Source of the DNA: an uncultured Candidatus Saccharibacteria bacterium
GTDB lineage: Bacteria; Patescibacteriota; Minisyncoccia; Phycocordibacterales; Phycocordibacteraceae
Direction: 5' to 3'
NCBI GenBank assembly: GCA_964438675.1
Contig: CAYTKJ010000001.1
Coordinates: 1-48,019, forward strand
Length of the DNA: 48,019 bases
A program made the translations under genes and the position numbers. A model generated the notes under the pieces. That model had not been told where the DNA came from. It did no database searches and was given only the letters and a program-made list of their open reading frames with translations. Positions 4,694 through 37,700 of the stretch are shown one piece after another; the first letter of the stretch is position 1; each line of letters begins with the position of its first letter.

Positions 4694-5356
4694 CTACAGG
4701 GAAGGCTCAGCCTCCCCTCTAAACTCGTCACGCATTTCGAGTACATTACGAACCAGATCCACGAATTCCTGCTTTGTCATAAAATACTTTGGAAACTTTT
4801 CCGGGTCGCAAATAGCAAAATCGCGTGTGACGTACTCTGACATACTTGAGTACTTGTAGGTCAGCGCCGTACTGAGCGCTTTGCTACTTTCATACTTTTC
4901 ATTCGCCGGATTCAGGTGGATGTACGAATATAAATACTTAAGATGTCTGTCAGTACTTGTATGTACCGCTTTATACGTACCTTGAAATAAACTTCCGGAT
5001 CGCTCATGAGCAGTGTTGAAGAACATCGTATACGCAGTTCCAATACGATGCATAAACCGTTCTATTCCCTTTTCGCATAGTGGAGTAAGTAATAAATGGA
5101 AGTGGTTGGGCATCAAACAAAACGCACCTATAGCAACAAGCGGCTCTATGCGATACGAAAGCACATCACGAGGAGTCCGTGATGAGTATGAGAGAAACGT
5201 ATCAGCTCGCACGGTCTGTTTGCTATTCATCATCACTAAATACGCCATAAATCTGACATACTCAGAGTGAGACGTATAAATAATTCTTTTATCTACACCG
5301 CGATTATAAATATGATAGTACTCACCTTCAGTAAACTGAACGCGTCTACTCGCCAT
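4694..5356 (-). CDS. IS200-like Y1 (HUH) transposase family protein, RAYT-like
   Basis: 220 aa with YHIYNRG at the N-terminus, the HUH motif MPNHFHLL and the catalytic-Tyr motif YIHLNP. The gene is visibly AT-richer than its neighbours. Confidence 0.8.
   Translation of the reverse strand: MASRRVQFTEGEYYHIYNRGVDKRIIYTSHSEYVRFMAYLVMMNSKQTVRADTFLSYSSRTPRDVLSYRIEPLVAIGAFCLMPNHFHLLLTPLCEKGIERFMHRIGTAYTMFFNTAHERSGSLFQGTYKAVHTSTDRHLKYLYSYIHLNPANEKYESSKALSTALTYKYSSMSEYVTRDFAICDPEKFPKYFMTKQEFVDLVRNVLEMRDEFRGEAEPSL
4698..4718. repeat. 21-nt imperfect palindrome, left copy flanking the Y1 transposase
   Basis: agggaaggctcagcctcccct. Its reverse complement matches 5377-5397 at 19 of 21 positions. It lies within the last codons of the transposase ORF. 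Confidence 0.7.
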
Positions 5357-9261: not shown

Positions 9262-11032
9262 CTTTCTCTATAATAAACCCGCCGGCCTGGAGTTCCCATA
9301 GATTTTTATACAAGGACCCCTCTGTCTTAAGAAGCTGGTCGTGTGTACCGTCCTCTTTAATTACTCCCTCATCTACCACAACAATTCTGTCCATCATGCG
9401 GATAGTAGAGAGTCGGTGAGCGATTGCTATAACTGTTTTTCCTTTCATCAAGCTATCGAGTGCGTCCTGTATGAGTGCTTCAGAGTGCGAGTCTAGGGAC
9501 GAAGTAGCTTCATCGAGTATCAGAATCGGTGCGTTTTTGAGAATGGCCCGCGCGATAGCGACACGCTGACGCTCACCACCGGAGAGCTTTACCCCGCGCT
9601 CACCAACGTGCGTCTCATACTTTTCAGGCAAGGAGTCAATAAACTCGTGGCAGTGTGCAAGTTTGGACGCAGCTATGACTTCATTATCTGTTGCGTCAGG
9701 GCGCCCATAGCGGATATTCTCTAGGAGTGATCGATGAAAGAGTACAGGATCCTGCGGCACCAGTGAAACACTGCGTCTCAAGCTATCGAGTGTTACCTTT
9801 CGCAAGTCCTGTCCATCTATTGCTATTGAGCCTCCCGTCACATCATAAAGACGCAAAAGCAACCTAATAAACGTAGTCTTTCCTGCACCAGACGGACCAA
9901 CAAGCGCAACCTTTTGAGCAGACGGAATGGTAAGAGACACATCTGAAAGAATCTTTCTGGTTTCGTTGAAGTTAAAATCGACATGGATATACTCCACTAC
10001 TGCGTTTGTTACCGTAAGTGGTTTGGCTGTAGCACTGTCTTGTATGTCATAGGCGAGGTGCATAATTTCTACCATTTCTCTTGAATCTGTGATCGCTTCA
10101 TACAAATGTCTAATCACACGACCTAAATCCCACATCATATCTGAAAGTCGAATGAGGTAAATCTGAATAAGCACAAATGTACCTAGTGAAATAAGTCCTT
10201 GTGCCCAGTATTGAATCGCAAAGTAAAAGACCACAAACGTCACGCCGAGCATAATAAGTGTTTGCAAACCATCAAAGACCAATCCCAAGGTCCAAGACAT
10301 CCACATGGCGTGCGCACGACGAAACGTCACATCAGCAAAGGTCTTGTTCTCCTTTTCTGAAGCCGCAAAAAGTGTTATGGAGCTGTGATTAGTAACAATA
10401 TCTGAAAGCACCCCGGTAGTTTCTGAATCTAATTCTGCACGCCGCACATCGTACGGAAGCTTAAACATTGAGAACGCGTAGTTAAGAGCCAGAAACACGG
10501 CTATCCACACGATCATTATGTATGCAAGCGCAGTATTTTCCTGATAGACCACATATATTGACCCAACCGCACCAATACAGATAGGTATGAGCGTTATGAC
10601 CAACGTGTCTGTAAGACGTTCAAACGCATTAGCAAAACGTCGAACGCGCTGCGAGAGTGAGCCGGCGAAATTGTTTTGAAAAAATGAAAACGAGTGATGT
10701 AGCATGTATGCCAGTGCATCTTGCGCTAAGACCGCCATACTTTTTGACTGAAAGGTGTTTAAGTACCAAAATGCGACACGCCCCGCTGCCCACCCAGCAA
10801 ACGAAACTGCCATAAAGACGTACAAAATGCCTACTAACTCTGCTGGTGATGCGTTCTGTGAGAGTCCATCAAAAAGTTCCTTGAGGTACAGTGGAGCAAA
10901 TACTCCCGCGAGCGCGTTTGCTGAAAACGCAAAAACAACTACCCAGAAGTAGCCATACAACCCACGCGCACCCCGCCAGTGCGCACGTAGCACGTCAAAA
11001 AATGATACCTTCCAGGCCTCTTTCTTTCGCAT
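9251..11032 (-). CDS. ABC exporter, fused permease/ATPase (MsbA/MdlB-like)
   Basis: 593 aa with six N-terminal TM helices, Walker A GPSGAGKTT, signature LSGGERQRVAIAR and Walker B ILILDEATS. Confidence 0.9.
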   Translation of the reverse strand: MRKKEAWKVSFFDVLRAHWRGARGLYGYFWVVVFAFSANALAGVFAPLYLKELFDGLSQNASPAELVGILYVFMAVSFAGWAAGRVAFWYLNTFQSKSMAVLAQDALAYMLHHSFSFFQNNFAGSLSQRVRRFANAFERLTDTLVITLIPICIGAVGSIYVVYQENTALAYIMIVWIAVFLALNYAFSMFKLPYDVRRAELDSETTGVLSDIVTNHSSITLFAASEKENKTFADVTFRRAHAMWMSWTLGLVFDGLQTLIMLGVTFVVFYFAIQYWAQGLISLGTFVLIQIYLIRLSDMMWDLGRVIRHLYEAITDSREMVEIMHLAYDIQDSATAKPLTVTNAVVEYIHVDFNFNETRKILSDVSLTIPSAQKVALVGPSGAGKTTFIRLLLRLYDVTGGSIAIDGQDLRKVTLDSLRRSVSLVPQDPVLFHRSLLENIRYGRPDATDNEVIAASKLAHCHEFIDSLPEKYETHVGERGVKLSGGERQRVAIARAILKNAPILILDEATSSLDSHSEALIQDALDSLMKGKTVIAIAHRLSTIRMMDRIVVVDEGVIKEDGTHDQLLKTEGSLYKNLWELQAGGFIIEKDES

Positions 11033-17380: not shown

Positions 17381-18058
17381 ATGACACCTACGCAACGAAA
17401 TGCGGCTCTCGCGCTCGCCATAACGGTACTGCTCTTTGGTACGGTGCTGTATGCAGTTAATTACCTTAATACTATGCGGGTTGCAGAGCTTGCACACATT
17501 GAGGATAAAATCGCGCTTGACACTCTCTCTCTCGAAACACAGTTTGATCTATTGGCAGAGGCTCCGTGCTCTGAGGTGTCTGAAGGCACTGTGCTTTCGA
17601 GCGAACTTAATGACCTTTCTGACAAACTTTCATACGCTGAGGAGAGGCTCGGGAGTGACAACGAAGAGGTGCTTAAGCTTAAGCGCCAGTATACACTTCT
17701 CCAGATCAAGGATTACCTCCTTATGAAGAGACTTGCGAAGGAGTGTAAGAACCTGAAACCCGTCTTTGTGCTTTACTTCTACTCAAACAAAGGTGACTGT
17801 CCGGAGTGTGCAGAAGCAGGGTATGCGCTCTCGTATCTTCGACAAACGTATCCTGGGCTCAGGGTGTACTCATTCGACTACAACTTAGACTTAGGAGCCA
17901 TACAGACGCTCACTGCGGTCGTAGGCATGAAACCTCCCTTCCCTGCGTACGTGATAAACGGTAAAAACTTTAACGGCCTCACCTCACTCACCGATTTAGA
18001 ATCTAAACTTCCTCTCAACCTACTCGCAACCACTTCAGATAGAAGTGTCCGTAATTAA
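17381..18058 (+). CDS. Membrane-anchored thioredoxin-fold protein (CPEC motif)
   Basis: 225 aa with an N-terminal TM helix, a coiled segment, then FVLYFYSNKGDCPECAEAG in a thioredoxin/glutaredoxin-like context. Confidence 0.6.
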   Translation: MTPTQRNAALALAITVLLFGTVLYAVNYLNTMRVAELAHIEDKIALDTLSLETQFDLLAEAPCSEVSEGTVLSSELNDLSDKLSYAEERLGSDNEEVLKLKRQYTLLQIKDYLLMKRLAKECKNLKPVFVLYFYSNKGDCPECAEAGYALSYLRQTYPGLRVYSFDYNLDLGAIQTLTAVVGMKPPFPAYVINGKNFNGLTSLTDLESKLPLNLLATTSDRSVRN

Positions 18059-18319
18059 GGTGTGTGGACGCGGCTCTAAAGTTTCGAACGGTTCGTAGTT
18101 GTCCGCTGTACCTGACGTATCGCAAGCTCAGTGGCTTCGTCCCAGTTTAATCCAAAAAAATTTCTAACCCGAGTCACCAACGACAACTCTGCATTGAAAA
18201 ATCCTCCCCTGAACCAGAGTACTAGTAACGCGGCACGCACGCGCGCCTCGCGTACACTGCGCCCCTCCTCAACACCCTCACGATTATTAAAAAGCATAGA
18301 TAGTGTTATTGATTTGTTT

Positions 18320-18353
18320 TGTGAGCCGCCTCCCAGATTCGAACTGGGGACCT
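18320..18353 (-). repeat. Orphan copy of the tRNA-Thr 3' part (variable loop, T arm, acceptor 3' strand, plus a 4-nt trailer)
   Basis: 34 of 34 nt are identical to 18450-18483. The sequences diverge immediately on both sides. Confidence 0.9.
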
Positions 18354-18453
18354 GAGATTTACTTCCGTGTGAGTGAGGAGAATAGGCGCTTGCGCATATT
18401 CTCGAGTGAACACTGGAAGCAAGATTTTAGTTTCTAAAAGCTTACATCCTGTG

Positions 18454-18526
18454 AGCCGCCTCCCAGATTCGAACTGGGGACCTTCGCTTTACAAAAGCGT
18501 TGCTCTACCAACTGAGCTAAGGCGGC
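18454..18526 (-). tRNA. tRNA-Thr (anticodon UGU)
   Basis: Hand-folded cloverleaf: acceptor GCCGCCT/AGGCGGC, D arm GCTC-AGTTGGTA-GAGC, anticodon loop TTTGTAA, T arm CCCAG-TTCGAAT-CTGGG, discriminator U. 73 nt, with no encoded CCA. Confidence 0.9.
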
Positions 18527-18630
18527 TCACAGAATGCAAGGCGTTGCTCGTCCCACTTTTGGCCAGCCCTTTCGGGCGGCCAATGCCATTATATGGCACC
18601 AGAAGAAAAGTAAAACCTATTACTTTTCTT

Positions 18631-18649
18631 CCAACTGAGCTAAGGCGGC
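18631..18649 (-). repeat. Orphan copy of tRNA-Thr positions 1-19 (acceptor 5' strand to D loop)
   Basis: 19 of 19 nt are identical to 18508-18526. On the minus strand it is followed directly by an 11-bp perfect hairpin. Confidence 0.85.
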
Positions 18650-18650
18650 G

Positions 18651-19016
18651 TTATTTCTTCTCGGGAGTTATGGTCCGCAAGAAGTTTGATACGGGGGCGC
18701 CCCCACCCTTTGGAGCAGAGACGCGCATTTTATACGACAGTCGAGCGAGTGGGCGCTCAAGTGCCCGCACTGCCTCAACTGCACTTTGTACACCAAAATG
18801 CGTTGCAGAATGAATGAGCGCCTTCACATAGTTGCGCCAGGAAAGCGGTACACCGCCCAGCACCATCGTGCGCCACAATTCTAGAGCGCGCTCATCGAGT
18901 ACTGATCGCTGTGCATTAAGAAATCGAATTCCGTGCGCTGTTTCGTAACGTCTCAGCGAGAAAAAACCGAGTATCGCAGACAGCGCGATAAGAAGTAAGA
19001 CCGCAGGGGTAAGCAT
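18651..19016 (-). CDS. Hypothetical small membrane protein
   Basis: 121 aa with an N-terminal TM helix. It starts 2 nt after the tsf stop, which suggests translational coupling. I recognise no motif. Confidence 0.5.
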   Translation of the reverse strand: MLTPAVLLLIALSAILGFFSLRRYETAHGIRFLNAQRSVLDERALELWRTMVLGGVPLSWRNYVKALIHSATHFGVQSAVEAVRALERPLARLSYKMRVSAPKGGGAPVSNFLRTITPEKK

Positions 19017-19017
19017 A

Positions 19018-19599
19018 CTATTTAGTTACGTAACGCTTGAAATCACCGACGTCTATGCGCTCACCAAACTTTTGTACCGCATTGTCGATAAGCTGGCGTA
19101 TCGTGAGCGTGTCGTCCTTAATAAACACCTGCTCCATAAGCACAACGTTTTTAAGGTAGGCGTCGACTTTTCCGGAGAGAATAGTCTCCTTAAGGTTTTC
19201 TGGTTTACCTTCGACTTCCTTTGTGTACAGACTCTTTATTTGCTCAAGCTTCTCTGCAGGTATGTCAGCGCGAGATTTATACTCAGGGCTCGACGCAGCC
19301 ACCTGGAGCGCTATGTCGTAAGCGAGCTTCGCAAAATCCTCGTGCTTTGACACGAAGTCAGTCTCAGATAGGAGCTCGACTACCGACGCCACCTTTTTAT
19401 TTGCGTGTGTGTAGGTTGCAAAAATACCAGACCCAAGCTCACGATCTCCCTTTTTGTCAGCAATAGACGAGCCTTTCTTTCGGAGAATCATAAGCGCTTT
19501 CTCGATATCACCCCCTGCCTCTTCAAGCGCAACCTTACACTGCATGACTGAAATGCCCGTACGTTCGCGAAGTTCCTTCACGATATCAGAAGAAATCAT
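19018..19599 (-). CDS. tsf: Elongation factor Ts (short form)
   Basis: N-terminal UBA-like VKELRERTGISVMQCKVALEEAGGDIEKA. 193 aa, located directly downstream of rpsB. Confidence 0.9.
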   Translation of the reverse strand: MISSDIVKELRERTGISVMQCKVALEEAGGDIEKALMILRKKGSSIADKKGDRELGSGIFATYTHANKKVASVVELLSETDFVSKHEDFAKLAYDIALQVAASSPEYKSRADIPAEKLEQIKSLYTKEVEGKPENLKETILSGKVDAYLKNVVLMEQVFIKDDTLTIRQLIDNAVQKFGERIDVGDFKRYVTK

Positions 19600-37262: not shown

Positions 37263-37288
37263 AGCTAAAGTATAGCGTATGTATTTTG

Positions 37289-37359
37289 TTGCGGGAGCAC
37301 GATTCGAACGTGCGTCCCAAGGTTATGAGCCTTGTGAGGTACCACTCCTCCATCCCGCT
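37289..37359 (-). tRNA. tRNA-Met (anticodon CAU), with an unpaired 1:72 as in initiators; elongator Met or Ile2 not excluded
   Basis: Hand-folded: A1, GCGGGA/TCCCGC, D arm GAGG-AGTGGTA-CCTC, anticodon arm CAAGG-CTCATAA-CCTTG, 4-nt variable loop, T arm GCACG-TTCGAAT-CGTGC, A72 A73. No encoded CCA. Confidence 0.85.
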
Positions 37360-37374
37360 GTTTGAATAATAGCT

Positions 37375-37617
37375 CTATTTCTTAAATAATTCAAGAATTG
37401 CGCTTTTACTCTTGAGTGACTTCAGATACCTCTCATGCCTCATAGCATCTGCCCGAATGGCAAATTTTTCGTTATGCACCAGCCTCCAGGGGCCGCGCCT
37501 GGCGGCCCAACCATTTCGCGATCGATCATTATGCTCTGCAATCCGAATTTTGAGATTGTTTGTTGATCCAATATAAAACCTCCCATCATCATTTTCTAAA
37601 ATATACACACTGAACAT
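37375..37617 (-). CDS. GIY-YIG nuclease family protein (small, YhbQ/Slx1-like)
   Basis: FSVYILENDDGRFYIGSTNNLKIRIAEHN carries the GIY..YIG signature. 80 aa from MFSVYIL. AT-rich. Its stop lies 15 nt upstream of tRNA-Met position 1. Confidence 0.8.
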   Translation of the reverse strand: MFSVYILENDDGRFYIGSTNNLKIRIAEHNDRSRNGWAARRGPWRLVHNEKFAIRADAMRHERYLKSLKSKSAILELFKK

Positions 37618-37619
37618 CT

Positions 37620-37664
37620 GGTTATGAGTTCCGACGTGTCGGAATACCACTCCTCCACCCCGCT
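37620..37664 (-). pseudogene. Degenerate second copy of the tRNA-Met 5' half
   Basis: Minus strand AGCGGGGTGGAGGAGTGGTA matches tRNA positions 1-20 at 19 of 20 (1-21 at 20 of 21, because the first base of the palindrome is also a match). A 16-nt palindrome TTCCGACACGTCGGAA follows, and then CTCATAACC matches the anticodon-loop region 32-40 at 9 of 9. It ends 2 nt before the GIY-YIG ATG. Confidence 0.75.
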
Positions 37665-37671
37665 ACTCGTG

Positions 37672-37700
37672 AGTGTACGCCAATTTTTATATAAAATCAA
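37672..37700 (-). promoter_or_regulatory. Candidate sigma70-type promoter upstream of the tRNA-Met fragment
   Basis: Minus strand TTGATT - 17 nt - TACACT, ending about 7 nt before position 1 of the tRNA-like fragment. It overlaps the stop codon of the upstream ORF. Confidence 0.3.

Follow-up and report, generated by a model that had tools for sequence, protein, structure and literature searches.

An intact tRNA-Thr gene apparently nested within an older, interrupted tRNA-Thr gene of a patescibacterial genome, and two families of structured modules associated with it

The tRNA-Thr(UGU) locus and its parts

The window analysed here is the whole 48,019-nt stretch of contig CAYTKJ010000001.1 (assembly GCA_964438675.1, an uncultured Candidatus Saccharibacteria bacterium), and its subject is a tRNA-Thr(UGU) gene that lies on the minus strand between partial copies of itself. 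The genome, denoted G000 (relatives' genomes bear other G-numbers, and fetched loci and metagenome contigs L-numbers), comprises 537 kb in 26 contigs, has 32 tRNA genes and is estimated to be 97% complete. Its genus is placed in Candidatus Paceibacterota, and the names of its relatives include Candidatus Paceibacterota and Patescibacteria group. A single tRNA-Thr(UGU) is called by both ARAGORN and the Rfam tRNA model, at 18454-18526; it is the sole gene found for this tRNA in the genome and its sole intact copy. The 19-mer GCCGCCTTAGCTCAGTTGG has exactly two occurrences in the window (18508-18526 and 18631-18649), as does the 34-mer AGGTCCCCAGTTCGAATCTGGGAGGCGGCTCACA (18450-18483 and 18320-18353). 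The outlying 5' fragment corresponds to tRNA positions 1-19 (19/19 identical) and the 3' fragment to positions 44-73 plus four trailer nucleotides, CACA (34/34). Neither word was found in 100 dinucleotide-preserving shuffles, even with 2-3 mismatches allowed. The fragments are separated from the gene by spacers of 104 and 100 nt and form with them one unit of about 330 nt (18320-18649, minus strand). In these respects the locus is as an earlier, sequence-only reading had described it, including the points that gene DNA has been copied and that neither fragment alone can make a tRNA.

The same reading had listed remnants of two tRNA-targeting mobile elements among the possible origins of the fragments. 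Our comparison of sequences indicates instead that they are the two ends of one older, interrupted outer tRNA-Thr gene, inside which the intact tRNA is nested; the rest of this gene can still be recognized at 18538-18552 (D-stem 3' strand and anticodon-stem 5' strand) and 18354-18359. The outer gene has three inserts: a module that we call I1, in the D-loop after G18G19; a complete tRNA on a stalk, in the anticodon region/loop; and a second module, Y, after the GTA of the anticodon loop. The parts are as follows, read 5' to 3' on the minus strand:

18631-18649, minus strand: A', outer tRNA-Thr positions 1-19 (acceptor 5' strand, U8A9, D-stem 5' strand, D-loop up to G18G19)
18543-18632, minus strand: module I1, inserted in the outer D-loop and made up of three hairpins (h1 18601-18632, h2 18583-18599, h3 18560-18582), ending in AGTGG before GAC-GAGC
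18538-18552, minus strand: D3, the outer tRNA resuming as GAC-GAGC-A-ACGCC-TT (D-stem 3' strand, position 26, anticodon-stem 5' strand, positions 32-33)
18527-18540, minus strand: leader strand of the stalk, CTTGCATTCTGTGA, which extends the inner acceptor stem and pairs 14/14 with 18441-18454
18454-18526, minus strand: inner complete tRNA-Thr(UGU) (ARAGORN; Rfam tRNA model, 68.6 bits), CCA not encoded
18441-18454, minus strand: trailer strand of the stalk, TCACAGGATGTAAG, beginning at the discriminator base U73
18359-18445, minus strand: module Y (h4 18421-18443; helix H with its 5' strand at 18411-18419, an inner hairpin at 18378-18403, and its 3' strand plus GTA at 18360-18371)
18354-18359, minus strand: relic of outer positions 38-43 (A-ATCTC), pairing with the outer anticodon-stem 5' strand lost
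18320-18353, minus strand: C', outer positions 44-73 plus CACA (variable loop, T arm, acceptor 3' strand, discriminator), pairing with A' as the outer acceptor stem in the minimum free energy (MFE) fold

The assignment of both fragments to a single older gene follows from three observations: the outer halves match each other, the inner gene differs from them, and CCA is found on the outer gene only. In G008 and G023, the outer pieces read GCCGCCT...AGGCGGC, in agreement with each other, whereas the inner gene reads GCCGGAG...CTCCGGC, the differences being in the acceptor stem and the T arm. If L033 and L034 are considered as well, the contrast is between an outer type GCCGCCT/AGGCGGC, whose halves are still mutually complementary, and an inner type GCCGGRG/CYCCGGC. 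The outer 3' piece carries CCA in G024, G013 and L034, as do the plain tRNA-Thr genes of the genus, whereas the inner gene never does. The inner tRNA is presumed to be the working gene.

Between the ends of the outer gene, D3 matches tRNA positions 14-33 at 80%, and CGAGCAAC is kept after I1 in most relatives, with the variants CGAGCAGC in L033 and TGAGCAAC in L032. At the site of the 18354-18359 relic, G008 and G023 read A + ACCGT and A + TGAGT, respectively, equivalent to an intact anticodon-stem 3' strand. The flanks of Y in the Thr unit of G000 form an imperfect direct repeat, GGATGTA / GGAAGTA.

Folding of the 338-nt unit gives an MFE of -154 kcal/mol (z = -9.7) and a nested cloverleaf, in which A' and C' form the acceptor stem, the outer D stem closes I1, and the stalk bears the inner cloverleaf, followed by h4, H and the outer T arm. 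The 14 pairs of the stalk, together with the 7-bp acceptor stem, make 21 continuous bp in G000. When nine sequences are compared, both sides have changed in 10 of the 14 stalk pairs and 91% of the cells are paired; these values were reached in none of 500 shuffles and approached by no slid register. Covariation supports the stalk as well as it supports the stems of the tRNA itself. Among the 32 tRNAs of G000 the stalk is unique, with 14/14 pairs as opposed to 2-8/14 for the other 31. Both modules show the same kind of support: 11 of the 28 consensus pairs of I1 have compensatory changes (seven sequences, alignment A1, RNAalifold), as do 18 of the 26 consensus pairs of Y (alignment A3). A scan of 18000-19100 for sigma-70 promoters detected no consensus site; TATAAT occurs within the h2 loop of I1.

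Several known kinds of RNA were considered for the unit and rejected. No open reading frame (ORF) with a Pfam hit lies within 18320-18649, and at E <= 10 the spacers match no Rfam family in five genomes, tRNA alone matching the unit. A group I intron is not supported, as there is no RF00028 match at E <= 10 in the unit of G000 or of four relatives, nor anywhere in the G000 genome; in addition, the anticodon stem that exon joining would restore is unpaired in G000 (ACGCC against ATCTC) and likewise broken in G013 and G023. Against archaeal bulge-helix-bulge (BHB) splicing, the splicing endonuclease PF01974 has no match in the 97% complete G000, with archaeal controls positive, and inspection of the MFE and consensus folds revealed no pairs of 3-nt bulges at the junctions, where the helices are continuous (14-bp stalk, 13-bp h1). 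Transfer-messenger RNA (tmRNA) can be dismissed because a genuine tmRNA is found beside smpB (C7:3116-3503) and the outer 3:70 pair is C:G. Finally, the unit shares a copy of the tRNA 3' end with the RtT repeats of tyrT (RF00391), but tRNA is the sole Rfam family matching it.

Occurrence of the unit in related genomes

Upstream of the unit and on the same strand are a release-factor gene, rpsB, tsf and an ORF of 121 aa without a Pfam match (orf121), the stop codon of which is 1 nt away from the 5' fragment; besides tsf and orf121, the neighbours of the locus include a thioredoxin-like gene. The order tsf, orf121, tRNA-Thr(UGU) is maintained across the genus. In a DNA search of 41 relatives, the match in G013 spans the unit from the 5' to the 3' fragment, and those in G024, G023 and G008 are partial. 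The unit is present in these four other genomes of the genus, in G024 without its 5' side (A' and I1 are absent), and the junction motif GCTCAGTTGGAAGAAA is found in 4 of 33 genus genomes. A scan of metagenomes added four further true cases, namely L030 (similar to G008), L032, L033 and L034. The tsf gene of L032 is just 49% identical to that of G000. L033 has a tRNA-Thr(CGU) inside, and the fetched stretch (about 3.7 kb upstream and 2 kb downstream) contains no match to tsf, orf121 or the thioredoxin-like gene; thus, its unit seems to reside in a different gene neighbourhood.

A common plan can be recognized across the loci: positions 1-19, I1, GAC-GAGC-A-AC..., leader, full tRNA, complementary trailer, h4 and H, GTA, and then the outer gene from the anticodon-stem 3' strand to the acceptor 3' strand. 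The equivalent of A' precedes I1 in G013, G008, G023, L032, L033 and L034. Since the layout recurs in independent assemblies (G013, G023, G008, partly G024, L030, L032, L033 and L034), an assembly artefact, which the sequence-only reading had kept in view, is unlikely as its origin.

In most of the genus a plain tRNA-Thr occupies the tsf-orf121 locus. The nested state is not monophyletic in the tsf tree, which places G000 together with the plain G012 and G020 and the partial G024. The closest relatives, G007 and G012 (tsf 89% and 81% identical, respectively), both have a plain tRNA-Thr(UGU) with CCA, inverted with respect to tsf-orf121 (L086/L105, G007:C5; L016, G012:C9), and in G007 the inverted gene is followed by tandem Y-like repeats. 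In view of these plain, inverted genes, the tRNA-Thr locus is a hot spot of rearrangement, and insert boundaries are not directly readable from them. The comparison with relatives proposed along with the sequence-only reading recovered the unit itself in related genomes but no clean empty site in the nearest ones. When 39 further tsf loci were scanned for the modules, clear matches were obtained in G023 and G007 alone, with borderline scores for L111 (22.1 bits) and L117 (22.5 bits).

Module families I1 and Y

The two spacers, described earlier as islands of 100 nt, turned out to contain members of two module families that are widespread in the order and have covarying helices. Covariance models of I1 (R1) and Y (R2) were searched in 151 genomes sampled from the order. 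At the Thr locus they score 82.4 and 96.5 bits, respectively; R1 matched 48 of the 151 genomes, with up to 7 copies per genome, and R2 matched 41, with up to 14. Copies of both are mostly found at tRNA genes.

At most of the best R1 loci, I1 comes right after a tRNA 5' fragment that ends at the GG of the D-loop (Ser, Leu, Glu, Gln, Val, Lys, Phe and Thr), and a complete tRNA of the same kind is located 27-75 nt beyond, often after a TATAAT-like box; some of these loci also have a downstream 3' copy. In L036 and L038, I1 splits an otherwise complete second tRNA-Thr at positions 19-21, which identifies I1 as a discrete insert. The L038 region (also L100; G178:C1, around 396.5 kb) has about 11 tandem AGTTGGT heptamers, corresponding to D-loop sequence, directly upstream of an intact tRNA-Thr(UGU), and downstream of this tRNA the D-loop-interrupted second copy follows an antisense piece of the D arm. 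I1 is also present within the 23S rRNA gene of G134 (L055, 1501-1608) and G164 (L061), as 122 extra nucleotides near position 229 of the large subunit (LSU) model in the Rfam alignment; in G102 (L059) it follows the same 23S flanking sequence, a third 23S case judged from the flank alone. Hairpin h1 of I1 has a 5' strand similar to GGAGGAAAAGAAAGCAA, a native 23S sequence.

G000 itself has a second I1 (46.9 bits), before tRNA-Tyr (G000:C16:10335-10560, minus strand). The order upstream of this tRNA is a TATAGT box, a copy of about 12 nt of its own 5' end, I1 and a 28-nt spacer; the gene is followed by a terminator hairpin, and no 3' copy was found downstream of it. In G153, five I1 copies, each at a different tRNA gene, have a mean identity of 91%, two of them being 99% identical, whereas Thr-locus copies from different genomes average 68%. 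I1 therefore clusters by genome and not by tRNA type, which points to copies having proliferated or been homogenised within genomes.

Y also has copies in intergenic DNA that follows ordinary genes, far from tRNAs. In G000, R2 detected three further copies, two directly 5' of tRNA-Met and tRNA-Asp and one that follows a relic of the tRNA-Asn 5' end, about 30 nt upstream of the gene; Y-like leaders were additionally seen by eye directly 5' of tRNA-Cys and tRNA-Leu(CAA). The positions of these copies and leaders are:

C25:4421-4497, Y copy or Y-type leader at tRNA-Asp
C13:7510-7595, at tRNA-Met
C26:1716-1809, at tRNA-Leu(CAA)
C17, about 10190-10261, at tRNA-Cys
C16, about 932-975, at tRNA-Asn

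The general layout of Y is X, AGC-h4-GCT, anti-X, core, X, where X stands for 7-11 nt copied from the flank: positions 1-9 of the tRNA at the genes just listed, and GGATGTA / GGAAGTA in the Thr unit. Where a Y leader abuts a tRNA, the acceptor 5' strand of that tRNA doubles as the 3' strand of helix H, with a perfect or near-perfect anti-acceptor strand upstream. A further repeat of positions 1-7/9 precedes the module at Asp, Leu(CAA) and Cys, and in G007 (L084 and L087, contig C2) two tandem units, each consisting of Y and 9-11 nt of the tRNA 5' end, precede tRNA-Asp and tRNA-Arg(GCG). Both 5' and 3' flanking copies are present at 11 of the 122 tRNAs in the fetched loci, which are a biased sample.

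In G007 (C1:35400-35950, L081), tRNA-Pro(CGG) is followed by repeated chimeric units containing its exact 3' half, called tRNA-Ala(CGC) by ARAGORN, and preceded by a generic Y module and a relic of the tRNA-Pro 5' end. Elsewhere in the window (37288-37700, minus strand), a decayed copy of the 5' half of a tRNA-Met lies upstream of that tRNA, together with a short ORF.

The sequence-only reading had compared the 3' copy to a scar of integrase-mediated insertion and excision. According to this explanation, two tRNA-targeting elements would have left the fragments behind as partial copies of the attL/attR type, their cargo having been reduced by deletion to about 100 nt. This would account for the direct repeat (34/34) of the 3' part of the tRNA that lies 100 nt downstream, and in G008 and G023 the 3' copy begins in the anticodon loop (GTAA...), an integrase-type crossover site; Williams, in 2002, is said to have treated this loop as the classical one. 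However, the locus has no integrase or cargo, the single tyrosine recombinase of the genome (PF00589) being encoded on another contig, C3, and the supposed islands are conserved, covarying modules common to other tRNA genes and 23S rRNA. Moreover, we know of no integrase that makes a mirror-image 5' copy together with a D-loop insert. Integrase scars are thus a very improbable source of the layout.

The spacers are also well conserved in place. Fourfold-degenerate sites of tsf are 23-40% identical between species pairs and hence saturated, whereas for the same pairs identity amounts to 73-94% from I1 to the leader and 74-85% from the trailer to Y. Therefore, either the spacers evolve far slower than neutral DNA or they have been recently exchanged. 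Such identity could reflect a function for the host: the ~330-nt tRNA-in-tRNA may be selected as an architecture, serving as a scaffold for folding, processing order, stability or regulation of tRNA-Thr(UGU), or, alternatively, the outer RNA may itself be a tRNA-like non-coding RNA. Compensatory changes between the apparently orthologous Y copies of G000 and G024, complementary outer acceptor halves in G000, G013, G008, G023 and L034, and the cleanness of the nested cloverleaf in the MFE fold all speak in favour of such a function, and the Y leaders with a perfect anti-acceptor strand directly before several working tRNAs of G000 suggest a role in cis. Yet a plain tRNA-Thr suffices in most genomes of the genus, the two closest relatives included, and G024 wholly lacks A' and I1. 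Decay has affected the outer anticodon stem of both G000 and G013, and the occurrence of the modules in 23S rRNA and intergenic DNA, near-identical within a genome, is typical of proliferating repeats. On balance, we regard a host-functional composite RNA as unlikely.

Origin of the nested gene and comparison with known systems

The explanation that we favour, at a probability of about one half, is that the outer gene was colonised by selfish, ORF-less modules resembling intervening sequences (IVSs), and that the inner tRNA serves as the working copy, being freed from a precursor that is highly structured. I1 and Y would be multi-copy families spreading in the genomes of the order, with tRNA position 9/10, the D-loop, the anticodon loop and one 23S rRNA site as their preferred insertion sites. 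Each insertion would bring a short target copy or a whole replacement tRNA, such that the gene survives, and the modules would thus behave as selfish elements of an IVS-like kind or like miniature inverted-repeat transposable elements (MITEs). The entire unit would be transcribed as one RNA folding into a giant cloverleaf. In the predicted fold, the 21-bp helix of stalk and acceptor stem and hairpin h1 look like RNase III substrates; the helix and the module hairpins, the long h1 among them, would be cut by RNase III-type processing, and RNase P, 3' trimming and CCA addition would then yield the inner tRNA as the sole functional product. An RNase III gene and RNase P RNA are encoded in G000. 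Once located in the precursor of an essential single-copy tRNA, the modules would have their folds held by purifying selection, as is the case for introns and IVSs. The G000 3' fragment ends in TCACA, as the inner trailer begins, instead of the TCCA of relatives; this substitution suggests short-tract gene conversion from the inner copy, which would keep the outer fragments identical to it and explain the perfect identity with abrupt edges. The sequence-only reading had offered three explanations. Its tiny non-autonomous element is the closest to this scenario, the remnants of two tRNA-targeting elements did not hold up, and a recombination product of tandem tRNA copies is retained below as a rival.

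Candidate enzymes for mobility are common in the order. The window encodes, at 4694-5356 on the minus strand, a 220-aa protein with an HUH motif (PNHFHLL) and YIHLNP, similar to the REP-associated tyrosine transposases (RAYTs) and IS200-like Y1 transposases. It is one of four RAYT-like genes (HUH + YxxxNP) of G000, the others being on C7, C10 and C11, with 32-40% mutual identity, and PF01797 was found in 91 of the 151 genomes. A crude regex scan of the G000 genome for the Y core was uninformative.

Several observations weigh against the colonisation scenario. The association between modules and transposase-like genes is weak: PF01797 is present in 35 of 48 I1-positive and 56 of 103 I1-negative genomes, a Y1 gene is absent from G153 with its five I1 copies, and the RAYT-like Y1 genes are old and divergent, with none adjoining a module. 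There is no clean empty site beside G000, its nearest relatives G007 and G012 being plain but inverted. Selfishness alone cannot explain why a single orthologous copy is conserved in place, so that a benefit in cis or a cost of misfolding must be assumed. In addition, G013 repeats a TATAGT promoter-like box before the inner tRNA and has a second GAGCAAC...TTTTGCA relic before Y, duplications which fit serial tandem duplication at least as well as insertion.

Serial tandem duplication combined with gene conversion is indeed a serious alternative for the origin of the nesting. In its full form, a tandem tRNA-Thr array would be decaying in place: duplications broken in the D-loop and anticodon loop would have produced at least three copies, the flanking ones would have lost parts while gene conversion kept the remainder identical to the middle copy, and I1 and Y would simply have settled in the dead copies. 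Besides the duplicated box and relic of G013, duplicated segments comprising a promoter and tRNA positions 1-19, as well as tandem units of Y and 9-11 nt, in G153 and G007 are in agreement with such a history, as are the two 3' layers in G008, and the TCACA end of C' in G000 indicates gene conversion here as well. What an array does not readily give is the nested order of 5' piece, full gene and 3' piece, with outer halves that match each other and not the inner gene in G008, G023 and L034. Dead copies would not be expected to retain covarying helices or 73-94% identity, and the same breakpoints recur in many different tRNAs. We consider a decaying array improbable, somewhat more so than a host-functional RNA.

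Going one step beyond colonisation by modules, I1, Y and the cassette of the stalked tRNA may, tentatively, be viewed as undescribed ORF-less mobile elements of structured-RNA genes. They would carry a target-complementary segment (anti-acceptor or anti-D-arm) and copy part of the target or bring a replacement tRNA, giving rise to Russian-doll genes that are resolved by RNA processing.

Whatever their origin, an essential single-copy tRNA is embedded here in a putative nested precursor of about 330 nt made up of conserved hairpin cassettes that also occur in 23S rRNA. If mobile, the modules would be RNA-gene parasites of a new kind, residing in the smallest bacterial genomes and endowed with built-in sparing of the host gene; if they have host functions, they would represent a new layer of tRNA maturation in Patescibacteria. 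Either way, tRNA annotation is affected, as fragments of this kind mimic pseudogenes or attachment (att) sites and can mislead the prediction of genomic islands, and the interpretation of rRNA inserts in CPR bacteria (candidate phyla radiation) is concerned too. To our knowledge, tRNA genes of bacteria are regarded as simple, interrupted in the known cases by nothing other than group I introns and, at the 3' end, integrase att sites. A literature search returned nothing on nested or interrupted tRNA genes in Patescibacteria and no published description of these modules.

Among known systems, integrative elements that target tRNA genes (prophages, genomic islands and cis-mobilisable elements) resemble the Thr unit in that partial direct tRNA repeats flank the insert and an intact tRNA is kept. 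Unlike in these elements, there is no integrase, the inserts are 90-100 nt long, structured and conserved, the 5' part is duplicated as well, and the junctions are at position 9/10, in the D-loop and in the anticodon loop.

The multi-copy, ORF-less hairpin repeats mobilised by RAYTs, i.e. repetitive extragenic palindromes and bacterial interspersed mosaic elements (REP/BIME), and the miniature derivatives of IS200/IS605 are similar to the modules in size (about 90-100 nt), in clustering by genome and in being partly intergenic. The flank-complementary segment of the modules resembles a guide, and Y1 HUH genes are common in the order. The differences are that here the transposase-like genes are not flanked by modules, that the modules have three hairpins or nested helices and RNA genes as targets, and that the target copies are 6-11 nt or longer. 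We know of no IS200/IS605 elements that make such target copies.

The disrupted tRNA genes of archaea and some algae offer another parallel. They include multi-intron, split, tri-split and permuted genes (work of Fujishima/Kanai, cited in PMC10714607), and some archaeal tRNA introns act as mobile elements. Interruption at non-canonical positions (D-loop, anticodon region) and leader or intervening helices are common to these genes and the Thr unit. In contrast, G000 is bacterial (EF-Ts and RF-type genes), no splicing endonuclease or BHB motif was found in it, and the insert contains a complete second tRNA; the outer gene of G000 is not restored either, its anticodon stem having decayed.

With respect to the stalk, the closest counterpart is provided by the leader-trailer stems of rRNA operons, which are RNase III sites. 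In both cases a long helix of 5' and 3' sequences encloses the mature RNA; the one found here has 21 bp and covaries. The Thr stalk differs in enclosing one tRNA, and it is known from sequence and predicted fold; a leader-trailer helix around a single tRNA is unusual for bacterial tRNA genes.

The modules can be compared with the IVSs of 23S rRNA. Short ORF-less insertion sequences in CPR rRNA genes have been catalogued by Tsurumaki et al. 2024 (PMC11270868), a paper in which the word tRNA is absent. At the Thr locus, unlike in such cases, I1 lies in a tRNA D-loop and is accompanied by partial duplication of the tRNA and a complete nested replacement. In common, both are short, ORF-less stem-loop inserts in a structured-RNA gene, of the kind tolerated as removed or harmless at the RNA level, I1 is itself a 122-nt 23S insert in this order, and G000 encodes RNase III.

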